A program made the translations under genes and the position numbers. The notes beneath the pieces were generated by a model. The model made no database searches. It was not told the DNA's origin and saw only the letters and a program-made list of their open reading frames with translations. Shown in pieces: positions 17,494 through 46,664 of a DNA stretch of 64,000 bases. How positions within the stretch are numbered: the stretch's first letter is position 1; each line of letters opens with the position of its first letter. This DNA comes from a virus, in the IMG/VR virus record IMGVR_UViG_3300009514_000515, positions 22,576 to 86,575 of that record; one strand, given 5' to 3'.

Positions 17494-18096
17494 TCAAGCA
17501 ACCCTGTAGGTCACAGTCGCATCCTTGGACGAGCGACGGACCTCTCGGAGGATGTTGAGGTTGTTCTGGATGGCCTCGAAGAGTTGGACGTAACGGTCCA
17601 TGTCCTCGGCCTCCTTCATACGACGCAGAGAACGGATGAACCGATGACGTACCAGTCCCTGGCTCTCCCCCAGACGCTTGGCCACCGCACTCTGACACGT
17701 CGTCTCAAACATCAGGACCATGATGCGGACATCCTTGGGATCATCCAGGAACTCGCCCAGGACCTCCTCCAGCTCCGCCTCGGTGACGTCCGGTAGGTGG
17801 AGAAGGAACATGATACGGGCCGTCGCCCTCTGAAGGCGATAGCAGACCGTGGGCTGACTGACCCCATATAGCTCTGCGATGGCCGTCTGCTTCATGTGCC
17901 GGAAGTAGTAGAGCTTGACGAAGTCTGACTCCCTCGCTGGCAGGTTATCGAGGATGGCCTTGATGCGCTCCATCTTCTCCTGACTCTCCTCGGACGGTGC
18001 CGAGAAGACGGAGTCCATGTGAGCCATCGAATCCTGGACGCTGAATCGAGAAGATAGCTCGACCGGGTCGATTACCTGGTGTCCTGGCCACATCAT
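17494..18096 (-). CDS. Sigma-70 region 4-like protein with two HTH modules
   Basis: LDNLPARESDFVKLYYFRHMKQTAIAELYGVSQPTVCYRLQRA plus a second HTH CQSAVAKRLGESQGLVRHRF. Likely start at 18096. Confidence 0.75.
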   Translation of the reverse strand: MMWPGHQVIDPVELSSRFSVQDSMAHMDSVFSAPSEESQEKMERIKAILDNLPARESDFVKLYYFRHMKQTAIAELYGVSQPTVCYRLQRATARIMFLLHLPDVTEAELEEVLGEFLDDPKDVRIMVLMFETTCQSAVAKRLGESQGLVRHRFIRSLRRMKEAEDMDRYVQLFEAIQNNLNILREVRRSSKDATVTYRVA

Positions 18097-18137
18097 GTCC
18101 GCACTCCCTGTCGTCGCTGTTTGCACAGCACCAAGAC

Positions 18138-19187
18138 CTAGACGAGGACTGCCTCTCCCTCTTCGTCCTCTACTGCGAGGAACATCCGAGGAAAACACAG
18201 AGTGGCCCGAAGAGACTGAAGCCCCTCCGTTTCAACGATGACGAGGTCGTCCTCCAGGAAGCACAATACCTTGACCGTCAGGCCCTTGAGACGACCCTCA
18301 ACAACTCGGGCCCGGTCTCCAATGCCGAGATCGCGAACACACAGACCACGCAGACTGACCCGCATGGACTCAATCTCTGCGTCAGAAACACAGTGGAGGA
18401 CTCGGATGCCGTTGGTCCCCACCGAGGACATGACCTGGTTGACATAGTTGGTCCTGGTCTCCAGGCTGAAATACTTGACCTCGGACAGGCCAGAGGCTAC
18501 GAACACGTACCCCTGAATCAAGGTCTTGGTCACGACACGGTCAGGGCGGTGGTAGGTCACCGCGGGCACGAAAATCAGGTGGCCCTCGTCGATGTCCAGG
18601 TCACGGCGAAGGGTGCTCTCCAGGGTCCCTTCCTCAACCCGGACCTCCCCCGCATGTCCCAGCTCGATGACGACCCAGGTTTGTCGGTCCCTAGGATCAC
18701 CCTTAGCTGTCTGGGATAGTTGCTCGGCGGTGTCTTCGAGAAGCCTCCCCGGAGTCGCCTTCTCGGGGACGGACTCGGCGAACTCCTCTGGCTGTCCATA
18801 AAGGTACTGAGACCTCTCGACCCCGTCCTCCGTCAGACCCCAAAGACCTCGGCCCAGACTCAAACAGAAAGAGGAGCGGCGACCAGAATACCTGACCGCC
18901 CTACCACTCTTGTGAGAGACTCTATCTGGTCGTTGGTTGCGGTGAGCCCACCCAATGACCCGGTAGAGGCCCAGAGGCTTAGATCCCCTCAAAGGCCACG
19001 GGCTATTCCGTGGGTCGATACCCACCTCCCCCAGAACCTCGTCAAGCACCGTCTGGTATGGAACCCCGACGTAAGCTGAGAACCCTGTCAGGCGACCGAG
19101 GACCTTGACCAGGGGATCAAAGAACTCCTGCGCCGTCGGACGTGGCCTCGACTGCTCCTGGGGAGCCTTGTCCTGAATCTCTGTCAA
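18138..19187 (-). CDS. NusG-like (NGN+KOW) protein with N-terminal Mrr_N-like winged helix
   Basis: TWVVIEL...IFVP...LIQGYVFV (NGN) and IGDRARVVEGRLKGLTVKV (KOW). N-terminal PTAQEFFDPLVKVL...IGWA...RGLWGLTEDG. The TTG start at 19187 is inferred. Confidence 0.75.
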   Translation of the reverse strand: MTEIQDKAPQEQSRPRPTAQEFFDPLVKVLGRLTGFSAYVGVPYQTVLDEVLGEVGIDPRNSPWPLRGSKPLGLYRVIGWAHRNQRPDRVSHKSGRAVRYSGRRSSFCLSLGRGLWGLTEDGVERSQYLYGQPEEFAESVPEKATPGRLLEDTAEQLSQTAKGDPRDRQTWVVIELGHAGEVRVEEGTLESTLRRDLDIDEGHLIFVPAVTYHRPDRVVTKTLIQGYVFVASGLSEVKYFSLETRTNYVNQVMSSVGTNGIRVLHCVSDAEIESMRVSLRGLCVRDLGIGDRARVVEGRLKGLTVKVLCFLEDDLVIVETEGLQSLRATLCFPRMFLAVEDEEGEAVLV

Positions 19188-20682
19188 TCCCACCCTGCCC
19201 CACCGAACGCTGCATACCAAGCTCTAGAAGACGGCTGCGGAGCAGGGAACAGAACTCCCCTAATCCCATCTGGTCAGTCTCACCGGAGCCCGTCTGCTGA
19301 ACCTGAGGTGCTGGGGACGGGACCGGCTTGGAGACACTCGACTCTGCCTTGCCAACCGGACTCGCCCCGAAGCTATTTCGGTTCACCGCACGGGGATCAA
19401 CGTAGACTCCACCCTCGATGTACGTCTCGTCAGCCATACTGATGAGACGTGCAGAACCCTCTGACACCGTCACCGAATCTTCTCCGGAAACTTTCTCCGC
19501 AGAAGTTACATCCGGCTCCGAGTTTTCCAGAGAAGGGTGGGGTAGGTCAAGTCTTCTGTCAATAAGCACTGGAGAGGAATTCCTCGTTTCCAAAAGCGAG
19601 AAACAACCCCCCAAAAATTGGCGGTGTAGTAGGAACAGGTCACACTCCAACATCTCCCGAGTGGGTCGTCGGGGGCGGGAGGCGAGGGACTCACTTACAA
19701 GAAGGAGTCCGTCCCGATGTCTCTGTCCGATGCCGGTTAGTCTCTCGGAGTCCCAGTAGGTGGGGGCTTTCTCAACTGAGAGCGCCACCTTGAAGGCCAG
19801 GAGAGCCGCCTCGGACAGGCGCTTGTACAAAGTTGCTGGTGAAACTTTCTCCAGCAGAGTTTGGGTGGCCTGGAGGGACTTGGGGATGTCCGTCCCCAGG
19901 CCTTCGAGGATCTCAAGAACCAGTTCATTGAGGTCGTCCCCGAGGAGCTGACGGACGGACTCCAGGGTGATAGGACCTGGGAGTCGGGCGAGGCTCTCCA
20001 GGGATTTGATAGCGGCTCGAATGCCGCCCTCGGCCCCTTCAGCGATACGTAACAAGGCCTCGTCCTCGGCCTCGAATCCCTCCTGGTCACAGATGAAGCG
20101 CAGGCGCTCTGCAATCTTCTTCGGGGAGACGACACGGATGACGAACGTTGGCCCACAGCGGTTGGCCACCGTGTTCCGCATCTTCTCCGGCTCGGTGGTG
20201 CAGAAGATGCACGTCAGACGGCGACTCCCCGTCTCCTGGTCCGTGTCCTCCATGGGCTTCAGCAGAGCATCCATCGCGTCCTTGGAGAGCTGGTGTGCCT
20301 CGTCGAACAGGTAGAACCGCCGACGTCCTGAGAACGTGGCATACTCGATGTTGCTCAGGATGGAGCGAATGTTCTCCTTACCACTATTGGTGGCGGCATC
20401 GATTTCCGTGAAGGCATCCGAGACACCTCCCCGGAGAACCTCGACGCAAGAGCTGCACTGGTCGCAGGCCTCACCCCTGGCGGGAGACTCACAGAGAAGG
20501 GCCCTCGCCAGAATGCGACCAAGGGTCGTCTTGCCGGAACCGGACAGACCGGCGAAGAGATACGACTGGTGGCGGCCTTCCCCGCTCGCCACTATCTGGC
20601 GGAGCATCGTCTTGGTGTGCCCTTGACCAAGAACCTCGTCGTACCTCTTCGGCCGGTACTTGATGTCCAGCGGCTCCCCCAT
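19117..20682 (-). CDS. dnaX: DNA polymerase III gamma/tau clamp-loader subunit
   Basis: KYRPKRYDEVLGQ, GLSGSGKTT, Zn module CES..ACDQCSSC, EIDAA, LFDEAH and NRC. Confidence 0.92.
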   Translation of the reverse strand: MGEPLDIKYRPKRYDEVLGQGHTKTMLRQIVASGEGRHQSYLFAGLSGSGKTTLGRILARALLCESPARGEACDQCSSCVEVLRGGVSDAFTEIDAATNSGKENIRSILSNIEYATFSGRRRFYLFDEAHQLSKDAMDALLKPMEDTDQETGSRRLTCIFCTTEPEKMRNTVANRCGPTFVIRVVSPKKIAERLRFICDQEGFEAEDEALLRIAEGAEGGIRAAIKSLESLARLPGPITLESVRQLLGDDLNELVLEILEGLGTDIPKSLQATQTLLEKVSPATLYKRLSEAALLAFKVALSVEKAPTYWDSERLTGIGQRHRDGLLLVSESLASRPRRPTREMLECDLFLLHRQFLGGCFSLLETRNSSPVLIDRRLDLPHPSLENSEPDVTSAEKVSGEDSVTVSEGSARLISMADETYIEGGVYVDPRAVNRNSFGASPVGKAESSVSKPVPSPAPQVQQTGSGETDQMGLGEFCSLLRSRLLELGMQRSVGQGGIDRDSGQGSPGAVEATSDGAGVL

Positions 20683-21191
20683 TACTCCTCACTCCCCTCG
20701 TCTTCAGAGGCGGACTCTTCCTCCTCGGCGAACAACTCCTCGATGGCCGAGGCACTTTCTTCGGCGGTGTCGTCCTCCGTATCGTACTTCATCCAGAAGC
20801 CGAAGAGCTTGATGTTCTCGTAGAACACCGAGGCGTCAGGAGGCCGCACGAAGTACCTCTCCGTCCCGTCCTCCTTCTCTTCAACCCCGCAGCAGCACAG
20901 GAGATGGTGCAGGGCGGCCATCTTGGTCTCGTCGGAGAACGTCAGCCACTCGTCGTTCCCGATCTCCAGGAGGAACACCAGCTCCCCTCGCTCCTTGGTC
21001 AGGGCCTGGATGACCGCCGACGCCTTCTTCGACTTCCCGAAGATGACCTGACCCCCGGACTTCGTCGCCTTCTCCTTGAAGAGAATGGCGATCTTGTCAT
21101 CGACAGTTGCCAAGTGAGGCAGGTGTTCCTTGATGATGTACTCCATCAACTCCCGGGTGGCTCCGGTTGCTTCCCAAATTTTCGACGACAT
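20682..21191 (-). CDS. Putative phage metallopeptidase-like protein
   Basis: Start MSSKIWE at 21191. FLLEIGNDEW...AALHHLLCC resembles the phage metallopeptidase family with a degenerate HELxH motif. Acidic tail. Confidence 0.55.
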   Translation of the reverse strand: MSSKIWEATGATRELMEYIIKEHLPHLATVDDKIAILFKEKATKSGGQVIFGKSKKASAVIQALTKERGELVFLLEIGNDEWLTFSDETKMAALHHLLCCCGVEEKEDGTERYFVRPPDASVFYENIKLFGFWMKYDTEDDTAEESASAIEELFAEEEESASEDEGSEE

Positions 21192-21870
21192 TGCGCCCTC
21201 CAATAGCGTGAGCAAATGCTTCGAGGAGGACCTCTCGTCCTCCTCGCTCCCAAATTTCGCCGGGGTCCTTGCCTCCGATATAGGCAACCTCCCGACACCC
21301 GATAGGTACGTCAAGTAGGTCCTTGATGGCCCTACTTGACCCGGAACGGCCAGCCTCGTCGTTATCGTAGACGACGTAGACGAATCTGGAAAACCGGCGA
21401 AGGAACTGGAGGTGACTGAATCCGAGACGGGCTCTTCCAGTGGCCAGGACGACCTCGGAGTGGGGAACCACCCACTCCATCGCGAAGAGATCGAAAAGAC
21501 CCTCGACCAACCAGACAACTCCGTGGACCCAAATCTGTTCGACCCCCTTCGCCGCCCCCAGAAACACGGGGTTCCACCGAGATTCCGGAAGGCGGAACTC
21601 GGTCTTCCAGTCACCCCGACGACCGATGAGCCCCAGAACGCGACCCTGGGGACACAGAAGCGGCGCTACGAGACACCCGTCCAATTTCTGGCCCCGAGAC
21701 CCGTATCTCTTCCGGAACTCCTTAGAGGGCGCGTCGCTTGGTGCTGTATCCCATGTCGTGAGCTGCATCCTCTGAAAAGAGTCGAACCTGGCTCCCCGGG
21801 CCAAAAGCATCTCCTCATGGTCGGGAGACAGCTCGCACGAGCCCAGAACACCACTCAACCATTCCCTCAT
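21097..21870 (-). CDS. Toprim-domain DNA primase-like protein (no N-terminal Zn finger)
   Basis: VWLVEGLFD, VYDNDEAG and KDPGE. Start MREWL at 21870. Confidence 0.8.
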   Translation of the reverse strand: MREWLSGVLGSCELSPDHEEMLLARGARFDSFQRMQLTTWDTAPSDAPSKEFRKRYGSRGQKLDGCLVAPLLCPQGRVLGLIGRRGDWKTEFRLPESRWNPVFLGAAKGVEQIWVHGVVWLVEGLFDLFAMEWVVPHSEVVLATGRARLGFSHLQFLRRFSRFVYVVYDNDEAGRSGSSRAIKDLLDVPIGCREVAYIGGKDPGEIWERGGREVLLEAFAHAIGGRNVVENLGSNRSHPGVDGVHHQGTPASLGNCR

Positions 21871-22475
21871 GTCTCCTTGCCCTTCCTGCTCTTCTTCTTG
21901 AGTGAGCGGGGCGGTGTCTTGCGTGCCACCGAGATTCCTCGGACAGCGTTCTGGACAACGGCGAACATCCCCGAACTCCCGGCCAGGGTCACCATGCCCA
22001 CGAAGGATCTCTCCTTGGGCAGAGCAACGGCCGTGTACTCCGGAACCCACTCGGCGCCAACGACGGGGTAGTCACCGATGGTACCCCGCTTGAGATACCT
22101 CTTCCCCGAAAGGGGAGACACCAGAAGCTCGATGTCGCGAAGGCCAAAACTGGAGACGTAGTCTCCCGCCGCCTCCATCCCCTTGAGGGTGAACGGATGG
22201 GTGTTCCCGTACTCCAGCTCATGACCACGCTCAACGATGGCATCGATAACCAGGCAGAAAAAGGCCGCCAGGTCCTGGCCTGGCCTGACCCCTGCCCGTA
22301 CGGTCCCGTTCCCCAGGGGGCGTTCGTACCAATAGAGGGGGGTTTTTAGCGACACGTTGGTCGTCAGGATGGCATCGAGACGAGGGTCTACAGGAACGAC
22401 GACCGCGAGTGCTTGGGCACCCTCGCGGACGAACTTGGGGTCTCGGTACACAGACAGGAGCGGGTTGTCCATCAT
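21867..22475 (-). CDS. Hypothetical protein
   Basis: Overlapping start/stop with both neighbours. Confidence 0.65.
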   Translation of the reverse strand: MMDNPLLSVYRDPKFVREGAQALAVVVPVDPRLDAILTTNVSLKTPLYWYERPLGNGTVRAGVRPGQDLAAFFCLVIDAIVERGHELEYGNTHPFTLKGMEAAGDYVSSFGLRDIELLVSPLSGKRYLKRGTIGDYPVVGAEWVPEYTAVALPKERSFVGMVTLAGSSGMFAVVQNAVRGISVARKTPPRSLKKKSRKGKET

Positions 22476-23206
22476 TCCTCCGTCGCCTCTCGGCGCCAGA
22501 ACATGAACCAGACCAGCACGCGACGCCACCAAGGTAGGGCGTAGTGAGCCAAGGAGTAGTTCGTCTCCACGATGATCCCACTCTCTTGGGGGTCCCCTAC
22601 CTCTCCACCGCTAGAAGTAGAAGCCGATACAGAATCGGACTGGCCACCTTCAACACCCAGATCAGAAACTGGAACAACATCGTCTACCTCGTCTTCGGGG
22701 ACTTCTGACCCCTCGTCTTCGTCATCGTCCTCCCCGTCACCTTCGACCTCTCCGGGTTCCTTCGGGGAGGCCTCCTCGTCAACAGAGGCCACAGCCTCCG
22801 AGGCGACGGGACCATCGTACAAGACCCAAAGCAGAGAGCCGACGTCGGGGTACTCGGCCACCAAAGGACCCATCTCCCCGTCCCTGGCTCTATTTAGGAG
22901 GTCCTGCATATGGAGGACGAACTGGCCTTTTGCCTCATCCTTGGTCAATCGGGACTCCAAATGAGGACACCCCTTCGCTGTCGAGAGACACTCCGGCATA
23001 TCATCGTCGCAGACAACGACGGACCACTTCACTCCCTCCGGCGGAGTGAACCGACACACCCCGACCTCCTTTCCGGAGACCGAGGCGACCCTGTCGTTGT
23101 GCTTGCATCGGCAAGGAACACGACGGAAGTTATCCTTGAGGACCTTACTCTGGTGTCTCCAGATGACCTGCTGAAGCTTGCGTCGGACCTTGCCTTCGCT
23201 CTTCAT
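22472..23206 (-). CDS. Hypothetical protein (Cys-rich N-terminus, acidic middle, hydrophobic tail)
   Basis: 244 aa, coupled to its neighbours. Confidence 0.65.
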   Translation of the reverse strand: MKSEGKVRRKLQQVIWRHQSKVLKDNFRRVPCRCKHNDRVASVSGKEVGVCRFTPPEGVKWSVVVCDDDMPECLSTAKGCPHLESRLTKDEAKGQFVLHMQDLLNRARDGEMGPLVAEYPDVGSLLWVLYDGPVASEAVASVDEEASPKEPGEVEGDGEDDDEDEGSEVPEDEVDDVVPVSDLGVEGGQSDSVSASTSSGGEVGDPQESGIIVETNYSLAHYALPWWRRVLVWFMFWRREATEE

Positions 23207-23868
23207 CTCTGAACCTCGTTCTCCAGGGTGAACTTCGCCGTGTCCTTCCTGGCTTGACGAACCCGGTACGACCTGTGAGACGCGTCCACGAACGTCTGGT
23301 TGTGTGTGATAATGAGGATATCCAAACCCAAACGATCACACAAAGCCACCAGGAACCGGCCCATGTTTGTAGCGTAGCGAGGGTCGAACGCCGGCAAGGC
23401 CTCGTCGAGGAGAAGGAACCTCCTCATATCACGCTTCGCCAGGATAAGCACTCGCAAGAGTACCGACTCGACCGTGGTCACAGAGCCGCCGAACGCCTCG
23501 CGACTGATTCCCTTCTGGACAGCACCGTCCGAGAGGGTCTTAGTCGTCACCAAATCAACTGCGACCTTGCCGCGCTCGACGGCGACCCGCGTCTCAACAG
23601 ACAACTCCTGGTCGTCAAACACCGCCTTGAGGGCCTCGGATTGGAGCCCCTCAAGGGTGGTCACGGCATCCTTGATTTCGGCGTCGATGAGACTCCGGAA
23701 CAGGGCACTGACGTGCTCCAGGACGGACTCCTCGTCACGAAGCTCCTCGACCTCTTTGTCCACTCGGCGAAGACTGGCCCGGAGCGCAGAGCGGCGTCCC
23801 TGGGCCCTACTGAAGTGGGTCTTGAGGGAGTCCAGGTCCGGGAGTTCTGGTAGAAGGGACATCATCAT
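23203..23868 (-). CDS. SbcC/Rad50-like ATPase, C-terminal half
   Basis: Coiled coil, then signature-like FGGS, Walker B LLLDE plus D-loop PAFD and H-loop IITH. No Walker A. Confidence 0.8.
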   Translation of the reverse strand: MMMSLLPELPDLDSLKTHFSRAQGRRSALRASLRRVDKEVEELRDEESVLEHVSALFRSLIDAEIKDAVTTLEGLQSEALKAVFDDQELSVETRVAVERGKVAVDLVTTKTLSDGAVQKGISREAFGGSVTTVESVLLRVLILAKRDMRRFLLLDEALPAFDPRYATNMGRFLVALCDRLGLDILIITHNQTFVDASHRSYRVRQARKDTAKFTLENEVQR

Positions 23869-25019
23869 CCCGCCTTGGCCGATACCCAGGACAGGACGGT
23901 GAGCCGTTTGCTATCCCCGATCTCCTCGCAGAAGGAGACCCACCCTCCCTTGTTCTGGGAGGAGACACCCATGACCACCCTGTCGCCAGAATACTGGCTC
24001 ACGATCTTGGTGAGATACTCGTAGTTGAGGGTGAACCCCTTGTCTGGGAGGGTGCCTTCGGCGGTGTTCTCTTCCAGCTCCAGAAGAGGGACTGAAAGGG
24101 ACACCGTATCCCCGGTGGCCGACACCAGGCTCATCTCGATGAAGGACCCTTCGACGCGATAGGTCGACCTCCTCCAGTTGTCCTCGTAGTTGGCACTGCT
24201 CGACAGAATGTCCAGGGCGGTTAGCATCTCGGACTTGTCGAACGTCCACTTCTGGTGAGCGTTCGAGAAGGCTGACGCCACTCGACCCATCTTGGGGAAG
24301 TCCTTGCCCTGACGCTCACTGCCGAATAGACGGCCGTCGGGGGACCGGAGGAAAAAACCCCGACTGTGCTCGTAAATTTCGACTTCGCACCCGACCACGT
24401 CGAGAAATTTACAGGACTTACCGATCTCACGTCCGGGGACTCGGAGGCTGGACTCCTCCATGCCGGGAACGGTGACGCGGACGCAGGACGCCCCGTCGGT
24501 TGCGAGAAGCGCTCCGCCCCGGAACTGGCAGTTGCAGAGGTGGGGCTCCATCGTCTCGTTCTTCGAGACGAAGTGCTTGGCGTACCCAAGGGCGGCGGCC
24601 AGGTCGGATGACTGAATCTTGGCCGTCGTCTTGGCCTCCTCCAGGGTCTTGTCCCAGAAGGGGAAGGAGGTCGGGTCCTTCGATCGGAACTTGACCGACC
24701 CGCGAGGGCTCGTGGCCTTGACTACACCCCGGTGGTGTTCGAACACTAGGGCCGAGTCATCGACGGCCCCCACCCATCGACGCAGGCGCTTCGACTCAAT
24801 GGTGAACTGGTTATGCCGATTGTCGTCATCCAGGCCTTCGACACGACAAATCATCGGAGATCCCGAGAAGAAGCTCTCGTTGTAGCTCAGGACCTCGATC
24901 TCTCCGTCGACGTGACGAAAGATGAAGTCGGCGTTGATGTTGTCGCCGCTGGCCGCGACGGTGTTGCTTGTAATTGCGAGAGCTGACTCCAAGTCGCTCT
25001 TTGCCACTGTGACCTTCAT
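23865..25019 (-). CDS. dnaN: DNA polymerase III beta sliding clamp
   Basis: 384 aa, three-domain size. MKVTVAKSDLESAL, LLATDG, KDFP and LNYEYL resemble DnaN. Confidence 0.8.
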   Translation of the reverse strand: MKVTVAKSDLESALAITSNTVAASGDNINADFIFRHVDGEIEVLSYNESFFSGSPMICRVEGLDDDNRHNQFTIESKRLRRWVGAVDDSALVFEHHRGVVKATSPRGSVKFRSKDPTSFPFWDKTLEEAKTTAKIQSSDLAAALGYAKHFVSKNETMEPHLCNCQFRGGALLATDGASCVRVTVPGMEESSLRVPGREIGKSCKFLDVVGCEVEIYEHSRGFFLRSPDGRLFGSERQGKDFPKMGRVASAFSNAHQKWTFDKSEMLTALDILSSSANYEDNWRRSTYRVEGSFIEMSLVSATGDTVSLSVPLLELEENTAEGTLPDKGFTLNYEYLTKIVSQYSGDRVVMGVSSQNKGGWVSFCEEIGDSKRLTVLSWVSAKAG

Positions 25020-25303
25020 GTGTCTCCTTCGATGAAAGGGGCCAATTCGGCCTCCACTGCCTCAACCTCTGCGACGGCGGCCTCGACCTTCTCTCGGTAC
25101 GCCTTGTGAAGTTTAGCCAGGAACCCGTCGATGTTGTCGGGGTCGATGTTCTTCTCCCGGCACTTCTCGCGGAGCTGCTGCATGTTCTTGCGAGACTGCT
25201 CCAGAGCCCCAGTCTTGCGGTTCTTGATTGCCTGAAGCTCCTCGCGACGCTTGGCTGCCGCGTGAAGTCGGTCGTGTAAAGAACTATGTGCTGACGCTGC
25301 CAT
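25016..25303 (-). CDS. Small coiled-coil hypothetical protein
   Basis: 95 aa, AGAGGA upstream of ATG. Confidence 0.65.
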   Translation of the reverse strand: MAASAHSSLHDRLHAAAKRREELQAIKNRKTGALEQSRKNMQQLREKCREKNIDPDNIDGFLAKLHKAYREKVEAAVAEVEAVEAELAPFIEGDT

Positions 25304-25333
25304 TCCTCTACCTCATACTGTCGGTCGGCGGAC

Positions 25334-30518: not shown

Positions 30519-30519
30519 C

Positions 30520-31336: not shown

Positions 31337-31363
31337 ATACGACACCAGGTCCGGAAATGGACC
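31337..31363 (-). promoter_or_regulatory. Putative phage promoter GGTCC-N14-TGTCGTAT
   Basis: One of four copies with identical spacing. Lies upstream of the SSB-like gene. Confidence 0.7.
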
Positions 31364-35623: not shown

Positions 35624-35650
35624 ATACGACATTGGAGAGGAAAGTGGACC
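35624..35650 (-). promoter_or_regulatory. Putative phage promoter GGTCC-N14-TGTCGTAT
   Basis: Same motif and spacing as 31337. Both are also preceded by TTAAG.G. Confidence 0.7.
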
Positions 35651-35838: not shown

Positions 35839-37908
35839 TCACACTGCCAGAGCCGCTGTCGATCCGTTTCGTAGTTGCTCGAGACCGTGGAACACCGCCC
35901 GCTTCACGTTCAGTGAGAGTATCTTGAAGTGCGCCGAGAGATTCACCCTCTCCCTCCCTCGAACTCTCAGATTTCCACCGCCGTGCCGCCCCTTGAACTC
36001 ATGATTTGTGGCCTCGATCGAACTCCGCGCTCGGTACTCGTCTTTGAACGCCCCCGTCTGTTGCTCCACCTGTCGCACTGCAGTAGCGAGTTGATGCGGT
36101 CCGCGTCGGAGCGTCCGCCGTCCATCGCTGAGCTTTCGCGTCGGGCAGAGCCCTGCAAGTCCGCACTCAGCGCATGCCTCGGCCCCGAATGTGGCGGTCA
36201 GGCCCCGGCGATGTTGGGTCTGCTCCACTGGGCGGTGTCCTGTTGGGCAACTCTCTACCAGCTCGAATGTCGAGCTGAAGGCGAACTCTGCAAGTTCGAG
36301 GTCCTCATCAGTCCCATCACTATATTCTCTGCTTTCCGGTCGCATCGTGGTTTCGTCGAACGGGTCGCGGCGACTCTCACCCTTGTGCGGATCACGAACT
36401 GGCGCGACCAATCGCACTCCCCTCTTCGCGCTGTTCACGATATTGGCACCGCTTCCATACCCAGTGTCTGCGAGGATTTCAGTCGGCGACATCTGGTCCC
36501 GTTCCAGCTGGTTGAGCATCGGAATCAGCGCTTTCTGGTCCGACTCGTGCGCGCCGTTGAGCGCTACTCCCGTCACCAATTGATAGGGGTTGCCACCAGC
36601 ACAGGTCTCGCTGAGCTGAAGCTCATAGCCTTTGCCCTTGTGGCCATATGTCGCATCCAAATCGTGGGGGCTCTGCAGCGAAGTGCTTTGCACCGTCTCT
36701 GGGTCCCGAAGTTGGACTCGACGAGTTCGTCCACTCCGACGGCCGAGCTTGCGTCGATTCTTTGCCTTGCGCTTGGGCTTGCGGGACAGCGGGCTTGCCT
36801 CACTCCCGCCCAATCCGGCTGCGTCGGCCTCATCGGCCTCGTCGGCCTCGTCGGCTTCGTCGGCTTCGTCGGCCTCGTCGGCTTCGTCGGCTTCGTCGGC
36901 CTCGTCGGCTTCGTCGGCTTCGTCGGCCTCGTCGGCTTCGTCGGCCTCGTCGGCTTCGTCGGCCTCGTCGGCCTCGTCGGCCTTGTCGGCTTCGTCGGCC
37001 TTGTCGGCTTCGTCGGCCTCTTCGGCCTCGTCGGCCTCGTCGGTGAACTCACTCACCTTGGCCTCCGGCTCGGACCGGGAGCGGACTTTTACGGGGTCAA
37101 CCGTGCCCGCAGAGCCGGCGCAACCACCTTCATCGTACGGCTCATCGATGAGTTCGCACTGCTCCTCGAAGAGCCGAACCAGGAGCGAATAGGCTCCAAG
37201 CGTCGACACGAGCTCGTCGCCTCGGAACATCTCGATCAGCTCATAGAGGTCCTGCGCAACGATCCCGAGACGCCGCTTGGCTTGGCTGCGTTTGGCGTCA
37301 CAGAAGTAGCCCTCGCGGTCGAGATACCGCTTGAGAGTGATCGGCTCCAGGACCGAGAGTCGCCCAGGCGTCTCCTTGCGGACTTCGCGCAGGAATTTCG
37401 AGATGGTCTCGACGAAGAGCGTCAGTCGCGAGAGCACCGCGATGTTGGACATGATGTGAGTCGAGTCGAGCCGCTGGAGTGCCCAGGAGACGCCATCGGC
37501 CTCAGCGAGGGCGCGTGTCAGCTGGGCAAACATAGTCTCCACACGGTCGTTTTTGGCGGCACGGACGCGGAAGTTGTGCAGGCTCTTCTGGCAGCTGTGG
37601 GCGGACTCAGGCTCGACAGCCAGCGCGTAGTGCCACTGGAGATTGTACTCCAGCTGCTCCAGGACTTGCTCGTCGGTCAGGTCATTGAGCTCCTTGAGCA
37701 AGTGCAAACTCACCAGAAGACGGATAGACATATTGGGGCGGCCCGTCCCGTCACTGAACGCACTCCGGAAGACCAGCTCGTCGATGAGCGGAAGCACAGT
37801 GTGGCGGAAGACATGGGCCCAGGATTCCTTCAGGCGCTTGGTCTTCTTCGGCGAGAGAAGATACTGCGCTTCGAGAAGAGAGAGTTGGGGGTCGGTCTCA
37901 CGAAACAT
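35839..37908 (-). CDS. DDE transposase with a (DEA)n low-complexity insert
   Basis: GRPN...LTDEQ...[28 protein letters not shown] and [10 protein letters not shown] motifs. Confidence 0.9.
36820..37043. repeat. 9-bp tandem repeat (~24-25 units of gtcggcYtc) encoding DEA
   Basis: Directly visible, in frame within the transposase. Confidence 0.95.
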
Positions 37909-40192: not shown

Positions 40193-40321
40193 GGATTCCT
40201 CTGAAACAGAGCCGGATTGAAGCAAAAATAAACCCCCACTACCGGCACTCGCAGGGGAATCCACCCTTAGTTTTTGAACCACTAAGGACGAGGTATCGAA
40301 CGCCTATCATCCCCGCTACCA

Positions 40322-41305
40322 CTAGCGCGTACCGATCTCACGACAGGCCCTCAGGAGACCTGCACAGAATCTGAGCCAGGGAGACACGCTGCCCTTGAGG
40401 ACACCCCTCTCGGCCCGTCTCAGGGTTCCCATAAGCTCGAAAAGACGACGACGGCTCCACCGCTTCGCGACGGGCAGCAACTTGTTCTTGTGATACCAGG
40501 AGTTGAGGTTGAGATCGGAGGCTGCTTCCCCTGGTGACACCCCCTTCTCGTGTAGATCAGCAACGGCCAACCACTTGGTCAGCGAGGGATACATGAACCC
40601 GACGACTTTCATCGTCGGGTCTCCTGGGTGAGTACGCCCGACCCAGGAGAGCTGACGAGACACCCGGCGCACGTTCGCCGTACCGACGGCGTCAATAAGG
40701 GGCTGCACCCCTGAGGCCTCGACCTGGGAGACAACACCCCAGACGTGCTTCGTCGTGGCTTCCTCCTCTCCTCGGGCTTCCAGGAGGGTGCAGAGCTTGA
40801 ATACCTCCCAGTGCAGAATCCCGAGGTTGGGACCGACGACGCTCACCAGTATCTCGGCCGCCTCCACAGGAAGACTCTTGCCCCTCTCCTTGGTCTCCTC
40901 GACACACATGCGGACGGCATCGTCAGGCTGCTTGAAGAACGGTGGCAAAGCGAACCGCTGATGGAGACTCTTCGGAAGGACTGTCACCAACTTCGCGAAA
41001 GTCCCTGACTTCTTCGGGGCACCCTCATTGACCACAGCCAGGGTGACCCCCGGCTGTGGGTCGTGATAGTGGTCGAGGATAGTGTCCACGTCGGCCTTGT
41101 CCGGTTGACTGACCAGGACCAGCTCCTTGCTCTCGAACAGCACCGACCCGGAGATGGCGTTCACGAGGTCGAGGTGGTCGCCCCCCTCGACCCAGGTCAC
41201 CTGGTAGCCCTCTGACAGAAGGCCTCTCTCCAGAGAGAGGACGGCCTGGCGCCGGCGATACTCGTCCGTCCCCGAGAACAGAACCACAGGAAACTCACGA
41301 GCCAC
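40322..41305 (-). CDS. holA: DNA polymerase III delta-like subunit
   Basis: VVLFSGTDEYRR, SVLFESKELVLV, VGPNLGILHWEVFKL and AERGVLKG follow the HolA architecture. Confidence 0.75.
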   Translation of the reverse strand: MAREFPVVLFSGTDEYRRRQAVLSLERGLLSEGYQVTWVEGGDHLDLVNAISGSVLFESKELVLVSQPDKADVDTILDHYHDPQPGVTLAVVNEGAPKKSGTFAKLVTVLPKSLHQRFALPPFFKQPDDAVRMCVEETKERGKSLPVEAAEILVSVVGPNLGILHWEVFKLCTLLEARGEEEATTKHVWGVVSQVEASGVQPLIDAVGTANVRRVSRQLSWVGRTHPGDPTMKVVGFMYPSLTKWLAVADLHEKGVSPGEAASDLNLNSWYHKNKLLPVAKRWSRRRLFELMGTLRRAERGVLKGSVSPWLRFCAGLLRACREIGTR

Positions 41306-41927
41306 GGAACACCTCACAGGCGCTGAGGAGGGCGTGAGAGACGCCTATCTTGGAGGGGTTCGTGAAGGCCATCTCCGGCCGAAGACGTTCCCAAACCGCC
41401 AGGGCAGAGAGGTCTCCCTTCTGAAACCTCTCGGACACCTCACGAGCCACTCCGTCCCCGAGAGCCCTGAGGTCTTTCGAGTCCCTTACCAGGCGGGAGA
41501 TGAGGTTGAGATCGTTGGTGGTGACTGCGTCCACGAGCTGTACCGCCCTGACCTCCACCTCCTTATCGAGAACAGTCCTGTCCCCTCCTTTCCAGACACA
41601 GAGACAACGGTTCACGATGGTCTCACGAACCTCCGAGAGGTCGTTAGCCCAGAGGATGGGGAAGGTGCCCTCGGGGTCTATCTCCTCGATGGACTTCAGG
41701 AGGACGTCACAGGACTTGTCATTGGCCAGGTCCATAGGACCTAGCACCAGGACGCCGCGCCTCTCCCCGATAGTTCTCGTCGAGAGGATGCGAACGGCCT
41801 CTCGGGCTTGGGCAACGCGCAACCCATCCTCTCCCATCGGAGGTGCCATGGGGCGACCCTCCCGGGCTTTCTCCAGCGCACCACCCTGGGCGGCTGGACC
41901 ATGAAAGAGGTAACACGAACTCTCCAT
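41295..41927 (-). CDS. holB: DNA polymerase III delta-prime-like subunit (short)
   Basis: YLFHGP, DVLLKSIEE and TIVNRC. Confidence 0.65.
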   Translation of the reverse strand: MESSCYLFHGPAAQGGALEKAREGRPMAPPMGEDGLRVAQAREAVRILSTRTIGERRGVLVLGPMDLANDKSCDVLLKSIEEIDPEGTFPILWANDLSEVRETIVNRCLCVWKGGDRTVLDKEVEVRAVQLVDAVTTNDLNLISRLVRDSKDLRALGDGVAREVSERFQKGDLSALAVWERLRPEMAFTNPSKIGVSHALLSACEVFRGS

Positions 41928-41961
41928 CTTCCCTGATCGGTTGGCGGGCATCCTTGCTCTA

Positions 41962-41988
41962 GTACGACACCGAGGGCGTCAGAGGACC
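41962..41988 (-). promoter_or_regulatory. Putative phage promoter GGTCC-N14-TGTCGTAC
   Basis: Third copy, upstream of holB. Confidence 0.7.
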
Positions 41989-42194
41989 TAGTGTCTCACG
42001 GTGAAGGTCCGGTTGCAGGTCAGGCACCTGTAGCGGGCTCGTCGTCCGGAGTATCCGAACTCGCCAATCACGTCAACGTCATTCTCGACAACAACATACC
42101 GCCCCTCACAGTCCTTGGCGGCCTTGCAAGGGAACAGGAGCTTCTTCGAGGAGTCGACGGGGCGTTGCCGAACCTTGTCGCTTTCGATGGTCAT
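41988..42194 (-). CDS. Small Zn-ribbon protein
   Basis: CKAAKDC...RYRCLTC. Confidence 0.6.
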   Translation of the reverse strand: MTIESDKVRQRPVDSSKKLLFPCKAAKDCEGRYVVVENDVDVIGEFGYSGRRARYRCLTCNRTFTVRH

Positions 42195-42754
42195 GGAACG
42201 TAACTCTCTGGGAGGAACCCGGCGTCGACGAACGAACGGCGCAGAGCGGACTCGATGCCTCGAATATACTCGGGGAACCTGCCCGGATTCAACATCGCCT
42301 GGTTGATGGGGAGACTGGCGTCGAACGCATCATCCTCCAACACCGGCACCACGCCGAACTTCCAAATCCTCCAACCCGACTGCACAGGGAAGATGTTCCG
42401 ATCTCCAGAACGAATGAGAGGGCGGTTCGTCTGATCAATCCGAACCACAGGAGATTGAGAACCTCGTCGCGTCTTCGGGAAGGTCGGAGTCGCCGACCCC
42501 ACCAGGATGTAGGCACACCCCAGAGCCAAGACCGAGAGCCCCAAAGCATCTCCCGTGAACGTCGGCAGGTCCTCCGGCTGTATGACCTGGTTGCCGTTGA
42601 CCCCCTCGACACCTCCCAGAAGAGCCTCGGGACCCATGGGCACCAGACCGATGCGTTCCTCTCCCGTTGGAGGAGGGGGGTTCTTCTTGAACCCCTGTTG
42701 ACTCGGGACCCGCCTGTTTGGATGACAGCTCTGCTGCTTGATGTTGAACGGCAC
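42191..42754 (-). CDS. Hypothetical protein
   Basis: 187 aa, GTG start, overlaps the next gene. Confidence 0.6.
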   Translation of the reverse strand: MPFNIKQQSCHPNRRVPSQQGFKKNPPPPTGEERIGLVPMGPEALLGGVEGVNGNQVIQPEDLPTFTGDALGLSVLALGCAYILVGSATPTFPKTRRGSQSPVVRIDQTNRPLIRSGDRNIFPVQSGWRIWKFGVVPVLEDDAFDASLPINQAMLNPGRFPEYIRGIESALRRSFVDAGFLPESYVP

Positions 42755-42865
42755 TTGTTTCTCCCCCCAATTTTCGGGGCAATTGTTTCAACTTTGTTCT
42801 AGTTTGCCCTAGTCCGCACCACCCCTAGAGTTCCCCGAGAGGGAAAGTTACGAAACTTTGTTTGC

Positions 42866-42913
42866 GAAAGTTTGAGAAAGTTTGAGAAAGTTTGAGAAAG
42901 TTTGAGAAAGTTT
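42866..42913. repeat. 10-bp tandem array (GAAAGTTTGA x ~5) in a non-coding region
   Basis: Directly visible, with degenerate and inverted copies just upstream (gaaagttacgaaactttg). Confidence 0.9.
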
Positions 42914-42946
42914 CACCACACCGAAGCTGAGAGGGCGCAGGTGCCC

Positions 42947-42966
42947 CTACCCCATGGCGTCGATAG
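42947..42966 (-). promoter_or_regulatory. Putative late promoter CTAT-N12-GTAG
   Basis: Matches the 45016-45035 copy in spacing. Confidence 0.45.
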
Positions 42967-43572
42967 CCTTTCTAGGCTTGCCAGGGGCTGCTCCCGATTA
43001 GGTTCCCGTAGAGGTCTAGGTTCTACCTGTTACTCGTAGGGTTGATACCATAAGGGAGAGTATCTGCCGTCTTATCGAGGACTGAGGTTGCGATTCCACC
43101 AGTTTGAGCGGTTTCAGTCGTGTTCGATGAAGGTGAAGCGTTGAGGTCGGTGTTGGTGGGTTGGGTAGCGACATCGGTAGTTTCACTACCTCTGTCCAAC
43201 CTATTAGAGGTTAGTAGAGATAGAGAACTCCGATGACGGCGGTTCTGGTCTTCCTGTGCTCTGCTCCTCGGCACTGACCAGGTACGCCCAAACCCTTCTC
43301 GCTCCTGTCGGGGCAACCTCTGGGGTTGAGCCTGTCGGGAGGAGGGTAGGGTCTCGTCTGAGTGCTTTCGGGAACCTCGATGGTCTCTGGTGGCTACTTC
43401 GGAAGTGTCTCTTTTCGCCTCGACCAACTACTCGCTCCCCAACCCCAGCATGCAGCCCGTAACATAGGCACTCGTCGTGCCCCCTCAGAGGTCCTGTTAG
43501 GCTCTCTGAAGGACGCCCTCAATAGAGGGAGGGGTTGAAGCCTCGGAGGGTAGTCCGAGGTCTCTCAGGCTG

Positions 43573-44979
43573 TCAAGGGAGGTTCTCAGGCGTCGACGTC
43601 AGGATGGGCGTCGACCATCTTCCGGAGCTTGGCGTAGTAGCGGTCGAGGTGCTTGATGACCTGGGCCGAGGTGCTTGATGACCTGGGCGGGAGCGCATCC
43701 AGTCTCGTCGGAGGCTGGCTTTCCAGTCGGAACCGACGGCGTCGGCATAGTCACGGATGGCTTGGAGTTGCTTTGCGTTGGGTTGCCTTCCTGCTCGGCG
43801 TCGACGCTGGAACGCGGCCCGGATACGCTGACGGCTGTAGGCCTCCTGCTTGTGCAGGAACGACTTCCAGGCCTGCTGGACGTCTCCCGGGGCCGAATCC
43901 ATGATGGTGTCGATGCCCTGGCTGGCGAGCCACTTGCGGACGGTCTGCATGCGAGAGTCGACGAATCGACGGTCGATGACCTCCTCTCCGGCCTCCAGGC
44001 GGTCGGCGATAGCCTGGCCTCGGGAACCGCTATTGCGCAGGATGCGCAGGACAATCGGAAGACGCTCGTTGACGATGCCCCTGGACCGGGCGGCAACCTG
44101 GTCGACAAACCCGCCCGAGGGACTTGGGTCCGTGGCTCGGGCGACCTCCAGGAACGCCTGCATGATGAGGCCGTTGATGAGGTTGCGCTCCTTCACCAGG
44201 CTGACGATGTAGCCGAGCATCGTCTCCGCGTCGTCTTTGACGTGCTTGCCGGGGAAGAGGATCATGTCGGCTGTGATCTCTTCCTTGGTGGCCGAAGGCA
44301 TCGCGGTGGACCACACGCTCTCGTCACTGTCGTCCATGACGAGGCCAGATACCTCCTCGGAGGCACGGGCTCGCTCCATCTCGCGGATGTACTTGCCGGC
44401 GGCCTGGATAGCCCAGCGACGCAGACGACCAATGAGGTTCTTGTTCTGGGGCGTCGAAGAGCCCTCCAGAATGGGGGCGACGGCCTTCTGGTCGTTGTTG
44501 CCTGCGTAGTGGAACAGGCTCGCCCATCCCATCTTCCTCTTGGCGCCCATGACCATCTGCTGGGCCACGTCGTCGTAGTCGGCGTAAGGGTGCTGGGCGA
44601 GCATGCCGCCTACCGGCTCCATCACGTAGGAGAAGAATCCGGTGTTGCGAGAACTCAGCCACCCCTTGTTGTCCGTCAGGGCGCCCATGTCGGCGAAGGG
44701 GTACTCGGCCTCGACGGCCTTGCCGGCTTGCTTCAGGCCCTGGCCAGGATGGCCTCGTCGAGACCACTCGTATGGGCGTCCGAGAACCCCCTCGATGTAC
44801 TGAAGGCGAGCCAGCATGTCGAGCTGGCTCTCCAGGACCGCCTTGACGTGACGAAAGGCCACGCGCCGAGCGACCTGTTTCTGGGGGCTTGCTTCCTTCT
44901 GGCGGAGGGATGCCTTGAGGCGGCGATACGTGCTGAACAACACCTGCATATGGGGATTCAGCGGAATCTGGCGGTCCAT
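43573..44979 (-). CDS. Hypothetical phage protein with a rearranged C-terminus
   Basis: Start MDRQIP at 44979. Carries VARRVAFRH. A 22-bp duplication lies near the 3' end. Confidence 0.7.
   Translation of the reverse strand: MDRQIPLNPHMQVLFSTYRRLKASLRQKEASPQKQVARRVAFRHVKAVLESQLDMLARLQYIEGVLGRPYEWSRRGHPGQGLKQAGKAVEAEYPFADMGALTDNKGWLSSRNTGFFSYVMEPVGGMLAQHPYADYDDVAQQMVMGAKRKMGWASLFHYAGNNDQKAVAPILEGSSTPQNKNLIGRLRRWAIQAAGKYIREMERARASEEVSGLVMDDSDESVWSTAMPSATKEEITADMILFPGKHVKDDAETMLGYIVSLVKERNLINGLIMQAFLEVARATDPSPSGGFVDQVAARSRGIVNERLPIVLRILRNSGSRGQAIADRLEAGEEVIDRRFVDSRMQTVRKWLASQGIDTIMDSAPGDVQQAWKSFLHKQEAYSRQRIRAAFQRRRRAGRQPNAKQLQAIRDYADAVGSDWKASLRRDWMRSRPGHQAPRPRSSSTSTATTPSSGRWSTPILTSTPENLP
43645..43688. 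repeat. Exact 22-bp tandem duplication
   Basis: cgaggtgcttgatgacctgggc x2. Confidence 0.9.
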
Positions 44980-45015
44980 GCTTTCCTCTCGGTCCAGGTA
45001 CTCCCGGTGAAACAA

Positions 45016-45035
45016 CTACAGGGCAGGTGATATAG
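45016..45035 (-). promoter_or_regulatory. Putative late promoter CTAT-N12-GTAG
   Basis: Intergenic, 36 bp upstream of the ATG at 44979. Confidence 0.5.
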
Positions 45036-45106
45036 TCAAACGAACGCGTCGAAAACCCCGGTGGAAACCAGGCCGAACTTCCCCCGAAACTTTTTCTAGA
45101 GCCGCC

Positions 45107-45136
45107 TTGACAGGGGGTTCTAGATCGAAGTAGCGT
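45107..45136 (+). promoter_or_regulatory. Host sigma70-type promoter TTGACA-N18-TAGCGT
   Basis: Perfect -35 and a TAnnnT -10, about 100 bp upstream of 45237. Confidence 0.5.
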
Positions 45137-45236
45137 CGTGGACAGGCTGCGGTCTTGACCGAAGACCGTCCGTTTCCGCAGCCTACCGTATCCGCTGAGG
45201 CTCTTTGAGCCCAAGTGACAAACGAGGTTATACGTC

Positions 45237-46664
45237 ATGGCCAAATTGAGCCAGAAGTGGTTTCGTGACCCTGTTGTTCTCGCGCTCGGCGAGCTGTGTG
45301 ACTTCGAGCCCGGTATAGGCATCCCAAGACGTGATGTCGTGGACCGTGTTCTGGAGAACACGGACATCGATGAGATGGCCGAGGGCTACTCCCCGAGTAA
45401 GAAGAGCAAGCCCCAGATCGCGCTCTGGATTGAACATGCCTTTCGGAACCAACGAGGAGGCAGGTACAACAAGAGGAACGCCAAAACCATCTCCATCGAC
45501 CCTGCCAACTGGCGGACACACGGTGGCCTCTGGGGGCTCACTGAGCTGGGTGTTCGCAGGGCTTTGGAATTGGCCGAAGCGAACCCCTCGTCGGGTAATG
45601 GCGGCGGAGGTAATGGCGGCGGAGGTAATGGCGGCGAAGGTAATGGCGGCGGAGGTAATGGCGGCGGAGGCTTGTCCGAGACCGTCGAGACCGTCGAGGA
45701 AGAGGTCCCGCTCCTCGTCGTCGAGCCCGATACTGAGGAGGACGGCCACCTATTCAAGGTCGAGGAGCCCGTCGTCGAAGATCCGGTCGAGGAGCCGGTC
45801 GTCGAAGAGCCGGTCGTCGAAGAGCCGGTCGGGGTCGAGACGATCTTTCCCGTAGTCGAGCCCGACATCACCGCCGAAGATATCGAGGTGGTCCCCGGCG
45901 TCGCCGAAGAGATTGCTCACGAACTGGCCCAAGACGAGGTGGTCTGTCAGACGGAAGAGACCATCCGCATCGTCGAGGAGGAGCCGGAGACACCGTCCAC
46001 GAACCTGACTGGACAGTACCTCGGGGACCACTGGGAGGAGTGCTGGAGCACCATGCTCGCGGCCGTGCGTAAACGCTGGAAGCGCTCTGACGATCTAGGC
46101 CTGGTCGAGGACCACGTCTCGATTTACGTCACCAACCTCATCAATCGGGACGGCCTGCGCAAACACATCCTGGACCCCGAGTTCAAACTGTCCTCTCGTC
46201 ACCTGGCTTTCTGGTGTGCTCAGGACTGCGTCAGCCAGCAACATCGGTGGGGCAGGGACCCGAGCGCCAGGACCCTGCGCAACGCCAAGACTCGATTCGA
46301 CCTGAACAACAAAATCGATGCCCGCATCGACCCGGACCTTTCCGGTCGGTTCGTCTGGAACACCGACCGAGGGATTCAATCCTTCGCCATCGTCGACAAC
46401 GCGCACGAGGCCATGCTCGACCATCTCTCGATGAAGGAAGCCATGGGGAAGATGGAGGATATCATCCACGACAATATGAAGTCCGGAGCGGCTGAGCGCT
46501 ATGTCTCTATCCTCCGAAGCATGGTCGAGGACGAGTGTTCCATCGTCGACGTCGCCGAACAGGAGCAGGTCACCCGCAATCGCGCCGCCAGCATCATAGG
46601 GACTCTGCGTTCCCTTCTCCGCGGTGCGCAGCGAGTCGGCTACCTTGAGGGCTACCTCAACTGA
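45237..46664 (+). CDS. Putative transcription regulator: Mrr_N-like winged helix, low-complexity linker, sigma-like C-terminal domain
   Basis: N-terminal WFRDPVVLAL...GGLWGLTELG, then (GNGGG)5 and EEPVV repeats, then C-terminal HTH SIVDVAEQEQVTRNRAASII. Confidence 0.65.
   Translation: MAKLSQKWFRDPVVLALGELCDFEPGIGIPRRDVVDRVLENTDIDEMAEGYSPSKKSKPQIALWIEHAFRNQRGGRYNKRNAKTISIDPANWRTHGGLWGLTELGVRRALELAEANPSSGNGGGGNGGGGNGGEGNGGGGNGGGGLSETVETVEEEVPLLVVEPDTEEDGHLFKVEEPVVEDPVEEPVVEEPVVEEPVGVETIFPVVEPDITAEDIEVVPGVAEEIAHELAQDEVVCQTEETIRIVEEEPETPSTNLTGQYLGDHWEECWSTMLAAVRKRWKRSDDLGLVEDHVSIYVTNLINRDGLRKHILDPEFKLSSRHLAFWCAQDCVSQQHRWGRDPSARTLRNAKTRFDLNNKIDARIDPDLSGRFVWNTDRGIQSFAIVDNAHEAMLDHLSMKEAMGKMEDIIHDNMKSGAAERYVSILRSMVEDECSIVDVAEQEQVTRNRAASIIGTLRSLLRGAQRVGYLEGYLN
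45594..45668. repeat. 15-bp tandem repeat x5 (GNGGG linker)
   Basis: ggtaatggcggcgRa units. Confidence 0.9.

Follow-up and report, generated by a model that had tools for sequence, protein, structure and literature searches.

The window analyzed here, a stretch of 64,000 nucleotides covering bases 22576-86575 of a virus record in IMG/VR (IMGVR_UViG_3300009514_000515; record length, 86,575 b), contains three genes, hereafter designated A, B, and C, with which the phage probably reprogrammes the host RNA polymerase. Gene A is predicted to encode a NusG-like elongation factor with NGN and KOW domains that has acquired a winged-helix domain; gene B, lying directly behind it, encodes a protein with sigma region 4 and a second helix-turn-helix (HTH); and gene C encodes the winged helix common to A, joined through a low-complexity linker to a region resembling the extracytoplasmic function (ECF) sigma factors. 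We consider these domain identities of A, B, and C very probably correct. Sigma and NusG are themselves known kinds of protein; what is new is the added winged helix common to both and the conserved gene pair of the NusG-like protein and B. The coordinates of all features are collected in Table 1.

The N-terminal domains of A and C, each of about 115 amino acids (aa), were aligned by BLASTP with 42/122 identities (34%; E = 8e-12), and, when all 86,575 b of the record were searched in six frames, copies of the domain were found only in these two proteins, bearing out the common N-terminal domain that the first-pass annotation of this DNA had pointed out. In both copies the motif A-[HF]-RNQR ends helix 3, and the wing contains G-L-W-G-L-T-E. 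Across the family the domain is basic, with a median net charge of +5 and a median isoelectric point (pI) of 9.7, 88% of the domains being above pI 8 (n = 139); the net charge is +7 in A (pI 10.1) and +2 in C. The same annotation had described the domain as Mrr_N-like. A winged-helix fold was indeed obtained by structure prediction, as given below, whereas the Pfam Mrr_N model (PF14338) matched neither copy, nor anything else in the window's record, even at E ≤ 10 (cut-off, 29.5 bits). Among 100 family members, Mrr_N matched 11 (E ≤ 1; best, 9.3e-6), the relative P0013 giving 6.5e-4 and 20.2 bits, below the cut-off; an Atlas cluster in which 55% of the proteins have Mrr_N ranked sixth, at 0.89, and provides a lead only; and no Mrr structure was present among the 50 best fold matches of the C model. 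The likeness to Mrr_N is weakly supported and only remote. HARE-HTH (PF05066) was not among the 25 commonest of the 124 Pfam families matching the 100 members, a list obtained with no dedicated search for this family.

The structure of C was predicted by AlphaFold2 (AF2) from 149 sequences, giving a mean predicted local distance difference test score (pLDDT) of 77.5, which exceeded 90 through most of residues 250-475. In the N-terminal domain, helices at residues 6-20, 31-42, 60-70, and 103-115 (pLDDT near 90 or above), together with a strand at 98-101, make up the topology helix-helix-helix-hairpin-helix. VIA-align superposed this domain on SSV1 F-93 (1tbx_B; Z 8.9, root-mean-square deviation (rmsd) 3.8, 88 aligned), the MUS81 winged helix (2mc3; Z 8.2), 2obp_B (Z 7.9), and many MarR-type proteins; residues 255-349 on the sigma2 of 5uxx_C (Z 7.8, rmsd 3.2, 83 aligned); residues 391-468 on the sigma4 of 3vep_D (Z 8.1, rmsd 4.0, 68 aligned), with 3mzy_A (Z 8.1) and 8jzt_A (Z 7.5, rmsd 1.5) also matching within residues 391-472; and residues 255-472 on the whole ECF sigma 6dv9_F (Z 7.6), Z values of 7.6-8.9 being in a range common for unrelated helical models. 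As modelled, the N-terminal domain appears to be a generic winged helix, the best fold matches of which are DNA-binding winged helices. Moreover, in the Foldseek search of the PDB with the C model, every listed row of the top 50 came from a sigma-containing entry, the best being the ECF sigma SigL (6dv9_F; E = 9.2e-3, probability 0.98), and, of the 27 rows bearing a name among the best 50 in BFVD, 21 were sigma factors of phages or subunits of RNA polymerase, ~150-250 aa long.

Region 4 was also recognized by sequence in the relatives of C. Thus, among 100 family members, Pfam Sigma70_r4_2 was matched in 49 (best, 3.4e-6), Sigma70_r4 in 27, and Sigma70_ECF in 2, and the sigma2-like part of C contains the near-invariant residues D292, H293, R304, D305, R336, and R345. 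In the relatives P0011 and P0013, which came to light among the matches of A, three tandem copies of the winged helix are followed by a region homologous to residues 256-352 of C (E = 1e-9). From the AF2 fold matches and the family Pfam matches, which bear out the sigma-like C-terminus first read from the DNA, C is predicted to be an ECF-like sigma factor with an added N-terminal domain, its region 4 being well supported and its region 2 resting mainly on the fold. The 132-aa linker between the two parts consists of GNGGGG repeats and Gly/Asn-rich sequence followed by an acidic tract with EEPVVE repeats, and contains 37 Asp/Glu as against 2 Lys/Arg residues (net charge, -35); possible roles for the linker are DNA mimicry and autoinhibition. 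The linker has a median length of 13 aa in the family, the long acidic form being specific to the window's lineage.

The joining of the winged helix to the sigma-like region is widespread. A profile search of 1.84 billion representatives returned 655 proteins at E ≤ 1e-3, of which 236 reached E ≤ 1e-30; of 151 proteins examined (the best 150 and P0011), 116 contained the domain, in one copy in 92, two in 21, and three in 3, and the remaining 35, some of which are suspected fragments, had no detectable copy. Each of five near-complete related phage genomes (402-619 kb) contains exactly one homologue of the C region, and in four of them the open reading frame (ORF) of this sigma starts with the winged helix (E = 1e-26, 2.3e-16, 3.5e-14, and 3.9e-4). 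A word-based homologue search with the whole of C or with residues 250-475 found only C itself; the search with the whole protein scored the 8000 candidates sharing most words, a list suspected to be filled by the low-complexity linker. In a phage database, only LR745208.1 was matched, at NGN-KOW and at residues 256-356 of C, and not at the winged helix. The winged-helix/sigma fusion is the ancestral, common, and normal form in this phage group. The first reading of the window, in which two fusions stood side by side, is accordingly re-weighted: the sigma fusion is normal and widespread, and the NusG fusion is a rare, lineage-specific addition.

The start of gene A is uncertain, TTG 19220, GTG 19193, and TTG 19187 all being candidates. 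With A alone, Pfam NusG gave E = 0.083 (13.9-15.8 bits; cut-off, 22.2) and Pfam KOW gave E = 0.015 (15.6 bits; cut-off, 22.3), and the protein matched phrog_6386, 'transcription antiterminator', at 4.8e-5. The presence of an NGN domain was examined with profile A4, built from 49 NGN-KOW sequences, which matched the solved NusG 8ehq_G through both domains (E = 1.5e-5; profile positions 19-160 aligned with chain residues 10-156) and Spt5 9eh1_Z at 4.9e-9. Within the same 49 sequences, at E ≤ 1, Pfam NusG was matched in 41 (best, 6.9e-6) and KOW in 30 (best, 3.5e-6). The NGN-KOW module that had been assigned to A at first pass is borne out by the match to 8ehq_G and the Pfam matches of the family, and A is best described, from its sequence, as a NusG-like elongation factor. 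In the AF2 model of A, which was built from seven sequences, residues 300-350 are beta barrel-like (pLDDT 70-83), and the winged helix, at low confidence, still shows the helix-helix-helix-hairpin-helix topology.

Gene B matched Sigma70_r4 at 3.9e-11 (42.7 bits; cut-off, 24.1) in two stretches, which confirms the separate double-HTH, sigma-4-like gene noted after A; its start, placed earlier at 18198, was not confirmed and is most likely ATG 18096 behind GGGAG, giving 200 aa. The profile of the B family matched the sigma4 of SigF (8jzt_A) at 4.3e-8 and FliA at 2.4e-5, and no region 2 was detected in B. A homologue of B lies directly 3′ of the NusG-like gene in all of the 70 related viral loci (phmmer E = 1e-18 to 1e-78). 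Because this adjacency is invariant, direct binding between A and B is plausible. In a complex prediction, NGN-KOW and B scored 0.54, the best of three controls scoring 0.00, and the runs agreed in at least 66% of contacts with a partner pLDDT of at least 68. Solved complexes attained the mark set for such scores in 58 of 80 cases, and mismatched pairs in 2 of 110; among those at the mark, scores of 0.60 or below were given by only 7 of the 80 solved complexes and by both passing mismatches. A score of this size counts as weak, and is more often wrong than right unless the complex is likely beforehand. Taken with the conserved gene order, B may plausibly bind the NusG-like protein directly. 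A location of the A-B pair at the boundary of a virion module could not be confirmed by a PHROG search of ten ORFs 3′ of B: eight had no match, 8825..9373 matched a family of unknown function, and 3248..5806 matched a DNA-binding family at 4.3e-9 and, weakly, a tape-measure family at 1e-5.

The 70 loci were obtained by scanning IMG/VR with the alignment of A, and all of them matched only its NGN-KOW part; no copy of the shared domain was found with its hidden Markov model (HMM) in any of these loci, up to 10 kb to each side. Measured from stop to stop, the NusG-like ORF is 180-285 aa long in 59 loci, 328 aa in one, and 604-667 aa in ten. In all three scanned of the ten long ORFs, the NGN-KOW part is followed by a 5′-3′ exonuclease of the FEN type (5_3_exonuc_N, 1e-27 to 7e-31), and the B homologue is still located 3′ of these NGN-KOW/exonuclease ORFs. 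The order winged helix-NGN-KOW was found in the window and in six full-length metagenomic proteins (P0002 and P0004-P0008; 48-83% identical), as well as in the metagenome loci L085, from a contig of 261 kb, and L086, in both of which B is adjacent. The reverse order, with NGN-KOW first and the winged helix last, was found in P0009 and P0010. When 57 NGN-KOW sequences were placed in a maximum-likelihood tree, the seven proteins with an N-terminal winged helix grouped together, as did the two with a C-terminal one, and both clades had 100/99 support; the backbone did not separate the deeper branches, and the two fusion clades may be sisters. Since both domain orders exist, at least one extra fusion or permutation event must have occurred. 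When 185,579 species genomes were scanned with A1, 331 pattern matches were obtained, none of which is a relative.

The winged helix also has carriers other than sigma and NusG. In four of the five huge genomes it is joined to a Cys-rich C-terminus, in which C-X10-C-X2-C-X5-C was recognized by eye in three of the four proteins, the fourth having a longer first gap, before a final C..C...H..C cluster; one of these proteins gave a weak match to the EndIII iron-sulfur family at 0.09. In another ORF, L087:2-757(+), the winged helix is at the C-terminus, and the N-terminal part, cut by the contig end, matched neither the NGN-KOW HMM nor the sigma HMM. Because of these carriers, the domain is a mobile module in these phages, with sigma as its main carrier.

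A TTGACA promoter had been proposed for gene C, and the hexamer is indeed present on the plus strand, but the hexamer 18 nucleotides (nt) 3′ of it is TAGCGT, which agrees with TATAAT at 3/6 positions, and the promoter scanner did not report this sub-threshold site. The scanner's sole site 5′ of C is GTGAAA-18-TATAGT, shuffled sequences containing 0.4 such sites on average. That C is expressed early from a host sigma70 promoter is a guess, and the cascade proposed to start from it is likewise conjectural. A candidate target of the phage sigma is GGTCC-N14-TGTCGTAY, each exact copy of which is located, by ORF coordinates, just 5′ of a minus-strand ORF or tRNA. With up to two mismatches, the motif has eight matches in the window, as against a mean of 3.0 in shuffled sequences, none of 100 shuffles reaching eight. 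Its geometry resembles that of ECF promoters, and no exact match was found in 77 related loci.

The window has a G+C content of ~60%, with nearly all of its long ORFs on the minus strand, and Pfam recognized a clamp loader, a RecD2-type helicase, a ribonucleotide reductase, an N6/N4 DNA methylase, and a chaperonin. The LAGLIDADG_3 match within the SNF2-family ORF may represent an intein or an inserted homing endonuclease. The CUA-anticodon tRNA is an amber suppressor; the stop codons of the 41 long ORFs tallied are TGA in 27, TAA in 9, and TAG in 5. CheckV estimated the completeness of the 86.6-kb record at 18%. The window represents part of the genome of a huge phage, since viral contigs as long as 619 kb contain relatives of the studied genes. 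PF00562 (RNA polymerase beta) matched none of the five huge genomes and all of 14 control genomes. With no detectable RNA polymerase beta in these five relatives, the host enzyme is therefore the most likely target of the sigma and NusG-like factors of the phage.

Table 1 Features of the window and of related loci. Positions preceded by an L number refer to the related locus of that number; all others are positions in the window.
Feature	Position	Strand	Basis or remark
Gene A, winged helix + linker + NGN-KOW	18138..19220	-	360 aa from TTG 19220
Winged helix of A, residues ~27-142	18795..19142	-	HMM match over 27-143; BLASTP to C
NGN-KOW module of A, residues ~176-359	18141..18695	-	Family profile, Pfam on family, PHROG
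Gene B, sigma region 4 + second HTH, ~200 aa	17494..18096	-	Directly 3′ of gene A
Gene C, winged helix + acidic linker + ECF-like sigma	45237..46664	+	475 aa
Winged helix of C, residues 1-118	45237..45590	+	AF2, VIA-align
Low-complexity linker of C, residues 119-250	45591..45986	+	pLDDT below 50-70
Sigma-like region of C, residues 251-475	45987..46661	+	Sigma2-like 255-349, ~45-aa insert, sigma4-like 395-470
Candidate promoter elements 5′ of C	45007..45113	+	GTGAAA-18-TATAGT at 45007-45036; TTGACA at 45108-45113
GGTCC-N14-TGTCGTAY, four exact copies	31337-31363, 35624-35650, 41962-41988, 60591-60617	-	Motif search
ORF just 3′ of gene C	46799-47164	+	Translation resembles TnpB/IS605-type zinc-ribbon end (CPSCG...CRSCG), by eye
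DDE transposase (full)	35839-37908	-	DDE_Tnp_1_6 at 2e-14
SNF2-family helicase ORF, 1748 aa	47884-53130	-	LAGLIDADG_3 at residues 922-998
tRNA, anticodon CUA, labelled tRNA-Pyl	63609-63681	-	ARAGORN
Winged helix + Cys-rich C-terminus proteins	L082:1039-1815(-), L083:1435-2379(+), L084:1438-2388(+), L081:1156-2259(+)		Second carrier, four of five huge genomes
NGN-KOW + exonuclease ORFs scanned	L062:9995-11797, L069:9896-11896, L072:9983-11782		Ten such loci among L062-L072; more distant clade

C resembles the ECF (group 4) sigmas, such as Mycobacterium tuberculosis SigL (6dv9_F) and Escherichia coli sigmaE (1or7_A), in its predicted layout of sigma2 and sigma4 without sigma1.1 or sigma3; these sigmas are its best fold matches, and members of the C family match region 4 by sequence. 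Unlike them, C has a basic N-terminal winged helix (one to three copies in relatives), the 132-aa acidic linker, and the ~45-aa insert between sigma2 and sigma4, and its sequence has diverged beyond what Pfam recognizes. At 150-230 aa, the sigmas of phages in BFVD also lack its extra domain. A has the same NGN and KOW core as the NusG paralogues RfaH, LoaP, UpxY, and ActX/TaA, specialized factors that are targeted to certain operons and protect long operons against termination; RfaH is recruited by its NGN domain through the single-stranded ops DNA. In contrast to these paralogues, A contains a separate N-terminal winged helix (C-terminal in P0009 and P0010), is encoded by a phage, and is always paired with B. 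The shared domain appears remotely similar to the Mrr_N of the Mrr-type restriction nucleases in size, topology, and its G-x-W-x-L-T-x-x-G wing, whereas its fusion partners are transcription factors instead of nucleases. In B, the first HTH is a clear region 4, as in sigma region 4 proteins, minimal phage sigmas, and gp33-like proteins, from which it differs by the match in two stretches and by its fixed place beside the NusG-like gene.

A survey of jumbo phages describes 'minimal' single-HTH sigmas, gp33, and RpoD-like sigmas in its group 2, the term 'NusG' being absent from its main text (PMC7824862); another paper mentions phage sigma70 and AsiA in its main text, again without 'NusG' (PMC7162821); and the main text of a 2021 review of NusG gives DII of Thermotoga maritima as the sole extra domain and contains none of the terms 'fused', 'fusion', and 'helix-turn-helix' (PMC7819879). 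No paper combining the features found here was retrieved by full-text literature searches, and the supplements of PMC7824862 and PMC7162821 might list such proteins. In keeping with the earlier statement, no described NusG with a winged-helix fusion was found in the literature searched.

Presumably, the winged helix would bind DNA, as suggested by its fold, its basic charge, its arrangement in tandem arrays of two or three copies, and the helix-3 motif common to the two copies in the window. In C, it would give the sigma an extra, built-in contact close to the promoter. In the lineage of the window, the domain would also bring the NusG-like factor to, or hold it on, the same sites of phage DNA, so that the initiation and elongation factors would thereby go to the same templates; B, the gene of which directly follows that of the NusG-like factor in all relatives, may bind this factor. 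The domain identities and this DNA-tethering mechanism, taken jointly, have in our judgement an even chance of being correct.

Several observations weigh against this interpretation. Pfam and PHROG gave no match for C alone, Sigma70_r2 was found in only three of the 100 family members (best, 1.2e-3) and not in C, profiles A2 and A3 had no significant match among the PDB sequences (best sigma, RpoH, E = 0.037), and Foldseek of the C model gave no match at E ≤ 0.001 in either PDB or BFVD. The AF2 model of A is poor, with a mean pLDDT of 51 and the NGN domain mostly below 50. The RNQR of helix 3 is not conserved family-wide (consensus x), and the domain is not specific to transcription factors, because it is also fused to the Cys-rich module and to the other ORF. 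In the fifth huge genome (G001, 485 kb), the sigma homologue, L076:955-2133(+), has no winged helix and contains N-terminal repeats like LDLLGGVDAINPL. Finally, divergent RNA polymerases of the phiKZ type might escape PF00562.

The main rival to DNA tethering is that the winged helix is a protein-docking module, binding a partner shared by A and C (for instance, RNA polymerase at one of its surfaces, or B or another protein of the phage) and bringing to it whatever is joined to the domain. The N-terminal winged helix of the delta subunit of Gram-positive RNA polymerase serves in protein docking, and C, with its strongly acidic tail after the winged helix, recalls the layout of delta, in which a winged helix precedes a polyanionic tail. 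Docking would also suit a domain fused to partners as unrelated as sigma, the NusG-like factor, the Cys-rich module, and the other ORF, and one in which the putative base-contacting residues are not conserved across the family. However, the domains are strongly basic, tandem arrays of two or three are more typical of DNA readers, and HARE-HTH is missing from the commonest Pfam matches cited above; the acidic linker, moreover, is confined to one lineage and could equally act as a DNA mimic like region 1.1. Docking appears unlikely on balance, although it is the alternative to be taken most seriously. A more specific form of DNA binding, in which the winged helix is an address tag reading a mark present only on phage DNA (a modified base or a dispersed motif), seems to us quite improbable.

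It is very unlikely that C is not a true sigma but an HTH-built DNA-binding regulator that does not bind core RNA polymerase, in which case the system would consist of an activator and an elongation factor. All of the sigma matches of C, structural and sequence-based, are below standard significance, and region 2 is rarely seen by Pfam, as given above; nevertheless, sigma2 and sigma4 were matched separately, in the right order and with ECF spacing, the Foldseek lists in two libraries were dominated by sigma factors, the six near-invariant residues lie in the sigma2-like part, and GGTCC-N14-TGTCGTAY, with the geometry of ECF promoters, precedes four gene blocks. Similarly, there is little chance that the winged helix of A reflects recent domain shuffling and has no function in common with that of C, acting, for example, as an autoinhibitory or stabilizing appendage. 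The absence of the NusG fusion from all 70 viral loci and the identity of only 34% between the two domains would be expected from such shuffling, but the fusion has been kept among proteins only 48-83% identical, is present in both domain orders, each in a well-supported clade of its own, and retains the helix-3 and wing motifs. Lastly, that gene A is not one protein, its N-terminal domain not being translated with NGN-KOW, as in the database gene call P0003, is extremely improbable: the gene caller gave a 241-aa product for this locus, and A has no ATG start and overlaps the clamp-loader gene by 71-104 nt at its 5′ end, but the frame is continuous in the window, the six homologues, L085, and L086, the N-terminal domain has invariant residues, such as DP..SPWPL.G.KP.GLYR and W-G-L-T, and the permuted forms hold both domains in one protein.

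Bacterial RNA polymerase has two universal handles, sigma for initiation and NusG for elongation. Among uncultured phages of 400-600 kb, a large group routinely has a winged helix added to the former and, in some lineages and in two domain orders, to the latter, which suggests a principle of recruitment not described for the sigma or NusG families. If the domain were an address tag, it would load sigma and the NusG-like factor only on phage templates, a single domain would tell self from non-self DNA in initiation and elongation alike, and the acidic linker of C would be a DNA mimic that keeps free sigma off DNA. Concrete proteins are offered for testing, namely, the winged helix by itself, C together with core polymerase, and A paired with B, and they provide a way into the transcription programme of huge phages that apparently have no polymerase of their own.

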